NCBI GenBank assembly: GCA_951406725.2
Contig: OX597814.1
Location: forward strand, 195,052,001 to 195,116,000
Direction of reading: 5' to 3'
DNA length: 64,000 nt
From: Octopus vulgaris
Lineage: Eukaryota
In this document: piece after piece, positions 23,218 through 48,979 of the stretch
Position numbering within the stretch: position 1 is the stretch's first letter
How the letters are laid out: the number at the start of each line of letters is the position of its first letter
Made by a program: the position numbers and the translations under genes
The notes under the pieces: model-generated
The model's input: the letters and a program-made list of their open reading frames with translations, nothing else
Databases searched by the model: none
Told to the model about the DNA's origin: nothing

Positions 23218-23439
23218 CACAGTTGTAAATTGTAAATCATAACTGTCACCACTACTACACGAACCTGAAGATTGCATAGTTTAATGCATGAAAGTACTAG
23301 CTCAATCAGAATGGACATTTAATATTCTATCATTTCATTATATGATATTATCTTATATTATTATAAGATTGTAAATAAAATGTGAAAATCAAAGTTGGAA
23401 TTTCTTTGAGTAATATATTCTTCTATACACAACCATACA

Positions 23440-23502
<63 letters not shown>

Positions 23503-45943: not shown

Positions 45944-45974
<31 letters not shown>

Positions 45975-46156
45975 CAACAATCAAGGAACGGCCATAATAG
46001 GCCATTCACCCACTAGAAATAACAGCCAATATTTCAGATATTTTCACGAGGCCTTTCCGACCTTGCCAAGTTTATATCTGACCTAAAATTTTCAAATCGA
46101 TATAAACTTGGCAAGGTCGGAAATGCCTCGTGAAAATATCTGTTCCGACTTGGGCT

Positions 46157-46262
46157 ATTTCTTACTGAAGAATCTGAGGGCCTGTGGTAGATTGGCTTGA
46201 TTAAATTAATCAGGTTAGTTTACCATTAATCAGCAGATGAAACGGTATATCGTATAAGAAAT
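46157..46262 (+). ncRNA. Type-I hammerhead ribozyme, copy 1
   Basis: Stem I ATTTCTTA/TAAGAAAT (8 bp); CTGAAGA 46165-46171; stem II ATCTG/CAGAT with a long hairpin insert; GAAA 46239-46242; stem III CGGTATATCG; GUA site after 46254. Confidence 0.85.
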
Positions 46263-46648
46263 TACAGGGTAAATGTTTTTTAAATTTTCTCCTGGTTTAC
46301 GGAATTAACTTTTATTTGCGGTTGAAGCTTTGGCTGTTATTTCTAGTGGGTGAATGGCCTATTATGGCCGTTCCTTGATTGTTGATGTTGAACTTAAAAA
46401 TGGTCTATGACTATTTAATTTTTTCCTACTAGGCCGCTGGTGGCAAAAGAATTCTACAAAATTTTTTTTTGCCACCCTATATTGATTAATTATGAATTTT
46501 CTGGTTAATTCCGTAATGGAATCGACGGCTTATATTTATTTGCTGCCGATAAATTTGGCGCGAGTGCGACGATTTGAAAATTTTAGGTCAGATATAAACT
46601 TGGCAAGGTCGGAAATGCCTCGTGAAAATATCTGTTCCGACTTGGGCT

Positions 46649-46755
46649 ATTTCTTACTGAAGAATCTGAGGGCCTGTGGAAGATTGGCTTGATTTAATTT
46701 AATCAGGTTAGTTTACCATTAATCAGCAGATGAAACGGTATATCGTATAAGAAAT
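46649..46755 (+). ncRNA. Type-I hammerhead ribozyme, copy 2
   Basis: Same core and stems; CTGAAGA 46657-46663; GAAA 46732-46735; GUA site after 46747. Confidence 0.85.
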
Positions 46756-46983
46756 TACAGGGTAAATGTTTTTTAAATTTTCTCCTGGTTTACGGAATTA
46801 ACTTTTATTTGCGGTTGAAGCTTTGGCTGTTATTTCTAGTGGGTGAATGGCCTATTATGGCCGTTCCTTGATTGTTGATGTTGAACTTAAAAATGGTCTA
46901 TGACTATTTAATTTTTTCCTACTAGGCCGCTGGTGGCAAAAGAATTCTACAAAATTTTTTTTTGCCACCCTATATTGATTAAT

Positions 46984-47016
<33 letters not shown>

Positions 47017-47021
47017 ATGTA

Positions 47022-47066
<45 letters not shown>

Positions 47067-47144
47067 ATAGGTGCATATTTCTATGTTTTGTTTTATGTAT
47101 GTCTTCTCGTGCATATCTAGACATGCTCATATATACATATATAT

Positions 47145-47775
47145 GATAAACTTCTGGAAAGTTTTACAGATTTTTACTGTTCCAGTGATGTCTTGCATTT
47201 TTAGTCTTCGAATTAGCTTTCTCCTTTCTGGTTTTGAGAAAACTAATTTCTCAAGATTGGTTCTTAGGCAGTGTGCTACATATCCCAGGGCCCCAACAAT
47301 TACAGGTATAAACCCGAACTTGTAATCCGGATAGAGTGACTGAAGATTTCTCAATAGCTCAGCATAGGCATTCTCTTTTTCACTAATCTTCAGCTTTATG
47401 TCAACATCCGTTGGGCAGCTAATTTCCACAACTGTACACAGTTTCTCTTCTCCATCTCAAATCATTATATCAGGTCTGTTGTGCTTACATTTTAATGAGG
47501 TCTTCACTTGGATATACCATTTTCCGACAACTGCTTATGAGTCATATCTTCATTGTGAACTCCACAAAGTCTGCATCGGTTGTCACATTTTACGGCTTTC
47601 CCACATCTCTATCCCTTTTGTGCATTAGGTACTAGGTTGATATTTCCTGTTTCTGTATTGCAAACGCATACCCTACAAAGTGGGAGGTAGTAATCCGACT
47701 ATTCGTCCATGATAAACTGCTTTCATGATCGATGTTACTATCATCACGGAGCTTTCTACTAACATATCCATGGAT
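47145..47775 (-). pseudogene. R4/NeSL-like non-LTR retrotransposon remnant
   Basis: SLSWTNS..GYAFAIQKQEIST; RPDIMI..EISCP..EKENAY..FIPVIVGALG. Related scraps at 59105-59270 and 62785-62825. Confidence 0.8.
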
Positions 47776-47864
47776 GCCTGTATGTATATATGTATGTATG
47801 TGTGTATGTATGTATGTATGTATGTATGTATGTATGTATGTATGTATGTATGTATGTATGTATG

Positions 47865-47898
<34 letters not shown>

Positions 47899-48979
47899 TG
47901 TATGTATGCATGCATGTATGTATGTGTATGTATGTATGCATGTATGTATGTATATATATATATACACACAGGTGTAATAAAATATTATTTCTGATTCATT
48001 GGCAACGAGTGCGAATGATTTATATCAATCGTAAGAAATCTTTAGTCACGAGAAAATAAACGCTCTTCATGCACGCACGCACACGCACACACACACACAC
48101 ACACACACGCACGCACACGCACATACACTCACAAACACATACACACACACATGCCTCCTACACGGCGCGCGCGTGTAGGAGGCACGTCCTCCACAGACGC
48201 AAACTGCGCTCACGTGGGCACTCACAAAGATATCTTCATATATGAGGTTGACTTTGCCTTTCATCCTTTCGGGGTCGATAAATAAAGTACCAGTTACGCA
48301 CTGGGGTCGATGTAATCGACTTAATCCATTTGCCTGTCCTTGTTTGTCCCCTCTATGTTTAGCCCCTTGTGGGAAATAAAGTAATATATATATATATAGT
48401 GACACACCAAACATGCATGTTTGACAGTATGCGCGTGCGTGTACGCGTGCATGCATGTGAATTAGTGGTCAGTGGTTAGGATATTCGATTGACGTCCGTA
48501 AGGTCACCAGTTCGATTCCCGGCAGCGCGTTGAGACCTTGAGCAAGGTACTTCATTTCACGTTGCTCCAGTTCACTCAACCGGCAATAATGAATATTACC
48601 TGTAATTCAAAAGGGTCAGTCTCCTCACATTCTGTGTCACGCCGAATCTCCTTGAGAACTACATTAAGTGTACTTGTGTCTGCGGAGTACTCAGCCACTT
48701 ACACGTTCATTTCACGAGCAGGCTGTTCCATTGATCGGATCAACTGGAACGTTCATCGTCGTAACTGACGGAGTGCCAGTGTGAATCTACGTGTGTGAAG
48801 CCAAATGATCTAGTGTGGTTAGTAGGTTGGGCTAATATTCCTAAAGTTGTTGGTTCGATCTCTGGATCGGACGTCTTATTGTGCCCTTGTCTAAGACACT
48901 TTATTTGACATTACTCCAGTACGCCCAACTGAAATGAGAAACATTTCAATGCTGGTGCGACCCACTATTTTTATTCTTA

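Follow-up and report, generated by a model that had tools for sequence, protein, structure and literature searches.

A non-coding hammerhead repeat of the octopus genome forms two-armed insertions with fixed ends, likely written by a borrowed Penelope-type enzyme

Non-LTR retrozymes have been described in coral, Mytilus and axolotl (Cervera and de la Pena 2020, PMC7229834) and in vertebrates (Li, Clavereau and Pollet 2026, bioRxiv 10.64898/2026.07.22.740005), and the class is already catalogued. A circle route has been proposed for their copying (PMC7229834), and a dimer model has been put forward for hammerheads with a palindromic helix III (PMC4209133, PMC7229834). In the 2026 preprint, an origin of retrozymes from Penelope-like terminal repeats is argued from co-occurrence and kinship, and eight of the nine frog elements predicted there failed to cleave. 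Endonuclease-bearing Penelope-like elements (Neptune, Nematis, Penelope/Poseidon) form pseudo-LTR insertions (PMC8557442, PMC3846280, PMC11167929), with an inverted 5′ copy, a 30-40-nt tail that is often at one end only, and a bias to (TA)n (PMC8557442, PMC3846280). Work in vitro has shown that reverse transcription starts at two internal sites, the sequence between them forming the tail, and that cutting and extension take place on both target strands; the enzyme is predicted to be a dimer (PMC11167929). The integration mechanism of Penelope-like elements and the agent that mobilises animal retrozymes are named as open questions in the accessible text of bioRxiv 10.64898/2026.07.22.740005, PMC11167929, PMC8557442 and PMC7229834.

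We analysed a stretch of 64,000 nucleotides of Octopus vulgaris DNA, referred to as a whole as the window. Within it, a young hammerhead repeat without coding capacity, of the non-LTR retrozyme class, has inserted once at 45973-46986, as two arms that meet head to head and whose outer ends both adjoin (AT)n (left flank 45948..45974, right flank 46987..47000). With unit positions numbered from the predicted cut (position 1 = 46255), the right arm (46100..46986, plus strand) holds positions 338-493, 1-493 and 1-239, and includes one cut-to-cut, non-coding monomer of 493 nt at 46255..46747 (plus strand). The left, inverted arm lies on the minus strand in two parts: an outer part at 45973..46029 (positions 132 to 76; 100% identical to 46330-46386) and, beyond a 5-nt filler at 46030-46034, an inner part at 46035..46099 (inverted positions 316-380; 98.5% identical to 46570-46634), which joins the right arm head to head. 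The first-pass annotation had read 45973-46986 as a tandem element; these are indeed the limits of the insertion, but the inverted arm at 45973-46099 had gone undescribed. The near-identical direct repeats that it reported were confirmed, 46085-46493 and 46577-46986 being 98.3% identical. No reading frame of at least 120 aa was found over 45973-46986, the reverse transcriptase and GIY-YIG frame of an autonomous Penelope-like element is absent from the unit, and GC is 35% in 46001-48000.

The outward 3′ end of the left arm is start site A, and that of the right arm is start site B. Module A (46352..46386, plus strand) consists of a hairpin at 46352-46373, then CCTTGATTG and the end point 46386 (unit position 132); module B (46439..46493, plus strand) consists of a hairpin at 46439-46476, then CCTATATTG and the end point 46493 (unit position 239). 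In the 493-nt unit the two end points are separated by 107 nt. Each site lies 13-17 nt behind a strong hairpin plus CCUNNAUUG motif and ends in AU, which by its sequence can pair with the target. Both sites are enclosed by a long-range stem of 46297-46309 with 46504-46516 (46297..46516, plus strand; 97.8% of cells paired); this stem and a further one, GGTGGCAAAA/TTTTGCCACC, had been noted earlier, and both are present.

The octopus repeat resembles metazoan non-LTR retrozymes in several ways: its units are non-coding and arranged in tandem, each with a single type-I hammerhead, GC is low, copies are numerous and dispersed, and Penelope-like elements occur in the same genome; it also shares a palindromic stem III with dimer-acting amphibian motifs. 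The palindrome, 10 nt long, sets it apart from metazoan non-LTR retrozymes, and a circular RNA is a prediction for the octopus repeat, whereas RNA circles have been observed for metazoan retrozymes. Its 493 nt exceed the 170-400 nt of their RNAs (PMC7229834) but lie within the 51-972 bp of the vertebrate preprint (bioRxiv 10.64898/2026.07.22.740005), and its stem II of ~24 bp compares with ~4 bp in canonical and 7-8 bp in minimal motifs (PMC4209133). In contrast to the plant LTR retrozyme, in which type-III hammerheads lie in long terminal repeats, the octopus unit is type I and tandemly arranged. Like Penelope-like elements, it shows a head-to-head inverted copy, a tail at one end, two start sites after the hammerhead and (TA)n targets; unlike them, it has no frame, its tail measures 107 nt rather than 30-40, and both arms are multi-unit arrays. 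Two-armed insertions with fixed ends are not described in the accessible text of the metazoan retrozyme papers (PMC7229834, bioRxiv 10.64898/2026.07.22.740005), and the tail, optional or often one-sided in published accounts of Penelope-like elements, here follows a near-strict rule of one end of each kind. Within the scope of our literature search, outside which lay most subscription papers as well as Repbase, Dfam and supplements, we found nothing on octopus retrozymes, Penelope twin priming or such a long stem II. The system stands out by its long stem II and 107-nt tail, by an end rule established by counting, one of each kind, and by a chimera that offers a candidate helper, none of which turned up in that search.

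Two intact type-I hammerheads with predicted cuts after 46254 and 46747, spaced by 493, had been proposed at this locus, and a structural descriptor run over both strands of the 64-kb window recovered these two and no other. The first (46157..46262, plus strand) comprises stem I (46157-46164/46255-46262), the core 46165-46171, the stem II domain 46172-46238, GAAA at 46239-46242 and the palindromic stem III at 46243-46252; the second lies at 46649..46755 on the same strand. The cores, CTGAAGA at 46165 and 46657, are followed by GAAA, stem III CGGTATATCG and GUA at the predicted cuts. The claimed 8-bp stem I (ATTTCTTA/TAAGAAAT) is present, and stem III CGGUAUAUCG is, as described, a self-complementary palindrome of 10 nt. 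The unusual ~57-nt insert in stem II is real as well (57-58 nt on a 5-bp base, giving a domain of 67-68 nt), but the perfect hairpin quoted for it is a variant of copy 1, where an A-A mismatch stands in copy 2 and in most members of the family. Compared with shuffles, folding gave z = -4.55 for the region and, for the monomer, -4.64 as a linear and -4.1 as a circular RNA. The minimum-energy fold is not catalytic, the core being paired with stem III, and the catalytic monomer fold is computed to lie 2.5-3.1 kcal/mol above the minimum. For stem III, a self-duplex of two copies was computed at -13.6 to -17.5 kcal/mol versus -0.1 kcal/mol for a hairpin, energies that, as calculated, fit the dimer model for palindromic helix III. 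An Rfam check gave no hammerhead match at E <= 5 and only microRNA-type hairpin matches, below threshold.

A 29-nt ribozyme motif has 805 exact matches in the octopus genome (control 0), and a monomer search yielded 228 matches at 97-100% identity in the 40 scored of 954 candidates, bearing out the earlier view of a young, amplified element. From 51 motif matches in 20 insertions on the first contig, we estimate ~300 insertions. Copies are dispersed arrays of 1-10 units lying in (AT)n, which makes a target-site duplication unreadable. Three related families are 70-93% identical to the window's unit: a second group at 87-93% identity (860 pattern matches), family C (474 nt, 72% identical), which makes up most of the 239 matches to a third pattern, and family D (~490 nt, ~70% identical; 77 matches in 40 scored of 2042 candidates). 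Families C and D, sampled at L244-L273 and L275-L304, have the long stem II and two start sites like the window's unit. The proposal that the element is non-autonomous agrees with 222 retrozyme stretches, in which no coding sequence is joined to families A-C. Non-coding tandem units, GC below 50%, dispersed copies and a conserved hammerhead structure, all of them features of a non-LTR retrozyme, are observed.

Core and stems are conserved across genomic copies, as the annotation would have it. In 97 full units from 40 loci, the sole varying core position is N7, the free one (17 units). Across families A-D we parsed 118 distinct hammerheads with a search pattern that required the core, so that copies with a broken core are invisible to this count; at least 111 of the 118 have a fully self-complementary 10-nt stem III, and the palindrome is maintained over five main sequences. 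In the same set, paired changes are seen in stem I and at the base of stem II, the predicted cut follows UA or UC, and stem II has a median length of 24 bp. Families A and B alone gave 21 distinct units with only 2 pairs changed on both sides, the stronger covariation being due to the addition of families C and D. Since the core is kept while stem III stays palindromic through five sequences, the ribozyme is, by comparison of copies, under selection and likely works as a dimer; the earlier suggestion of dimer action is supported by the covariation and by the preference of stem III for the self-duplex over the hairpin.

To describe the ends, we scored 113 insertions (40 score-ranked, 60 in genome order and 13 of 30 overlapping loci, one per insertion; insertions without both ends in one stretch were omitted), with an outward end at 125-137 called site A and one at 229-248 called site B. 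Two head-to-head arms ending at fixed sites were found in 80 of the 113, in the combinations A+B (79), A+A (1) and B+B (0), an excess of A+B with p = 7e-23 against independent site choice, which predicts half same-site pairs. A further 25 have one fixed-site end and a blunt 5′ end, and 8 end elsewhere. The same pairing holds in family C (A+B in 6/6 two-ended insertions, among 17) and in family D (12/13 two-armed insertions). The longer arm is A in 31 insertions and B in 48, arm lengths are uncorrelated, and arms reach ~ten units, crossing the cut junction without a scar. Units on opposite arms differ by 0.79 substitutions (43 pairs) versus 4.94 between loci, and all 18 loci with full units on both arms fall below their own between-locus median; both arms of an insertion share one haplotype. 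The insertions carry the Penelope-type signature of an inverted 5′-truncated copy, a tail at one end and an AT-rich target. The dependence on a Penelope-like enzyme that had been suggested for the element gains support from this two-site, inverted-arm signature, which is also seen in coding Penelope-like families. L1 twin priming also yields an inverted 5′ arm, when both 3′ ends of the target are extended on a single RNA; in the octopus insertions, by contrast, each of the two putative priming sites is internal and fixed, the arms hold the same unit redundantly, and most insertions have such arms.

Some arms contain internal jumps between start sites or units (L197, L206 and L250, with a jump from site B to site A after 13 nt at L206), which suggests frequent template switching. 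An apparent pile-up of inner ends at the cut, 13 of 186 arms seemingly ending at unit positions 1-6, proved to be a BLAST edge effect, most of these arms running 3-18 nt past the cut into stem III. Read by eye, 4 inner ends lie at unit positions 1-6, against 2.3 expected (p = 0.19); within 476-30 there are 27, against 18.1 expected (p = 0.024, uncorrected). We do not take these inner ends as a sign of cleavage in cells.

Among the Penelope-like elements of the same genome are two young, intact coding families. The first (L102:3371-7958 on G000:C17; 4588 nt) has a variant minimal hammerhead and a 1312-aa frame (L102:3463-7401) holding a long asparagine-rich stretch; such stretches have been described in rotifer elements (PMC3846280). 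Its protein is 22% identical to the 775-aa protein of the second family; Pfam gave no match for the whole 1312-aa protein and a weak reverse-transcriptase match for its C-terminal part. This family ends at 127 and 183 from its own cut, with one of each end in 18/18 insertions with both ends read (20 stretches, one insertion spanning two and one showing a single end); one further, incidental coding insertion of the family, in the L065 flank, has B+B ends. The second family (L347:3702-7972 on G000:C8; 4271 nt) is very young, with copies in L315-L363, and has a hammerhead core of CCGAAGA, not CUGANGA. Its 775-aa frame (L347:5111-7435) encodes reverse transcriptase and GIY-YIG and overlaps a 454-aa frame upstream; the overlap, which holds A and T runs, is identical in 26 of 29 copies read, suggesting a programmed frameshift or an intron. 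One of each end is found in 12/12 insertions of this family (18 stretches). We take it to be Neptune-like partly from motifs of that clade. The name also draws on a predicted C-terminal endonuclease with a cysteine linker, as in PMC8557442. A third coding family, found from L202, is decayed. Among the matches listed for the protein queries P0049 and P0032, the 1312-aa family was the sole one. Neither intact family shares sequence with the unit by BLAST or profile search, and a likeness of site A to the start of the 1312-aa family's frame, scored by weight matrix, was not significant (second-best site; 14% of shuffles reach the best score).

Two chimeras occur among the 222 retrozyme stretches, both of family D and none of the window's family. 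At L315:690-3200 (G000:C13; duplicate on C57), two arms meet head to head at an AAT common to both, one of family D with its end at site A, the other Neptune-like with its end at its own site B; each arm is ~98.4-98.5% identical to its nearest kin, and the chimera obeys the one-of-each rule. At L274:3521-7384 (G000:C6), the partner of family D is an older element akin to the 1312-aa family (94% identity to the nearest kin), and the ends are A+A, which may reflect two events. The coding partners in the two chimeras belong to different clades. Since neither chimera is of the window's family and L274, with its relative of the 1312-aa family, is A+A, the chimeras do not name one helper. Our first candidate, put forward tentatively, is the 775-aa Neptune-like family; the 1312-aa family is a more doubtful choice, and otherwise the helper would be a family not found here. 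The octopus repeat annotation records 31 recently active Penelope-like families in Octopus vulgaris, in a main text that does not use the words ribozyme or retrozyme (PMC13282606), and with so many families other helpers are possible.

We consider it likely that a Penelope-type reverse transcriptase/endonuclease, borrowed by the retrozyme, wrote this insertion with its two fixed-site arms into (AT)n. Both strands of the (AT)n would be cut by the enzyme, which probably acts as a dimer, and each of the free target 3′ ends would prime on the same RNA through 2-5 nt of AT pairing, one at site A (132) and the other at site B (239). Both cDNAs would then run through the cut junction, for up to ~ten units, and the two would be linked head to head, in many cases where a few bases are common to both. 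Against this explanation stand the 33 of 113 insertions that are one-armed or end elsewhere. In an in vitro Penelope system, hammerhead mutants inserted normally and start sites were the same on both strands (PMC11167929). A more speculative extension, to which we give less than even credence, is that Penelope-type integration is an asymmetric twin priming in which a dimer primes at A and B and never at the same site twice; the duplicated hairpin-plus-CCUNNAUUG module would capture both subunits on one small RNA circle for rolling-circle copying, and L315 would name the intact, very young Neptune-like family as helper.

Because no scar marks the cut where the arms read across it, the template was either uncut or re-ligated, not a linear cut monomer. 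A circle is favoured by the long homogeneous arms and by the fact that arrays must be able to grow, and we lean towards a ligated circle, produced by dimeric hammerhead cleavage and copied round and round. Partly shared variants are lacking in 15 of 18 arrays; the other 3 hold 4 variants common to some units only (0.02 expected), which implies that some templates were mixed or that arrays were later converted, and which a single monomer circle fails to explain without editing, switching or gene conversion. These variants speak for an alternative with the same enzyme and start sites, in which the template is an uncut multimeric read-through transcript of an existing array, circles are not copied, and the hammerhead persists because it serves another step, RNA release or stability. 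Unprocessed RNA was the main substrate of an anole Penelope element (PMC11167929), and the lowest-energy fold of the octopus RNA blocks the core. Yet linear copying can only shorten arrays, whereas arms of 9-10 units exist (L054, L186); the homogeneity of most arrays and the selection on a dimer-type ribozyme in four families also weigh against an uncut template, and we regard it as rather unlikely. None of the sequencing runs that contain the unit is on record as RNA; 14 are guessed to be RNA, and contigs of 7 of these cover the unit, although contigs give no level, ends, strand or circles, and in them a circle's junction would equal the tandem DNA junction. In 3 guessed-RNA runs, the unit's summed depth, taken against the apparent DNA run X15, is below that of neighbouring repeats. 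In run X8, 16 of 21 listed differences over window 46100-46990 are A>G on the hammerhead strand, which could reflect RNA editing. As proof of editing this excess was dropped: alleles of subfamilies account for several of the differences, and in X15, too, the leading changes are A>G and T>C.

The inverted arm could instead arise by self-priming, with one arm RNA-primed, the other folded back, and the endonuclease resolving the product at the other site. Self-priming has been proposed for rotifer Penelope elements from junction palindromes (PMC3846280); near-palindromic junctions occur at L034, L191 and L199, and the window piece 46035-46099 could be a fold-back. We nevertheless think a fold-back improbable, given that the longer arm may be at either site, that arm lengths are uncorrelated, that inner ends mostly differ between arms and that L315, whose arms come from two unrelated RNAs, cannot have formed in this way. 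Growth of single Penelope terminal-repeat copies in place by unequal crossing-over, a satellite scenario proposed in bioRxiv 10.64898/2026.07.22.740005 and one in which the hammerhead is a passenger, could accommodate the partly shared variants as gene conversion. It is very hard to square with dispersed arrays, fixed ends against (AT)n, one haplotype on both inverted arms and a core that is invariant while stems covary, and we give it very little weight. We give least of all to the idea that the unit is a mere terminal repeat of a coding Penelope-like element and its copies the truncated ends: the unit's hammerhead, followed by two start sites 130-240 nt downstream, matches such a repeat in layout, as seen in both coding families, and protein searches covered the best 63-150 of thousands of candidates, but arrays reach ten units with no frame between units, families A-C adjoin no coding sequence in the 222 stretches, and a check for a coding element with this repeat, by a short-stem-II hammerhead pattern with this stem III, gave only 1 rearranged match.

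For the twin-primed, Penelope-written insertion that we prefer, the one-of-each rule is seen across four non-coding and two coding families. The same end rule in six families, two intact candidate enzymes, start sites exact to the base and a 493-nt template mean that a single in vitro assay could test the model. If one protein inserts a short non-coding RNA as arrays into (AT)n, such an RNA would be of interest as a possible gene-writing part. Nothing points to a host function for the repeat.

The window holds further retroelement remnants. A decayed 3′ end of a Penelope-like element lies at 574-1259, 71% identical to the 1312-aa family, with a GIY-YIG-like frame at 705-1253; Pfam gave no match for this endonuclease fragment. 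At 23219-23443 the terminal repeat of the Neptune-like family is present in an older copy (76-85% identity). Close to the insertion, 47180-47600 on the minus strand carries a LINE fragment with a restriction-like endonuclease (PDI motif), which resembles the R4/Dong kind.
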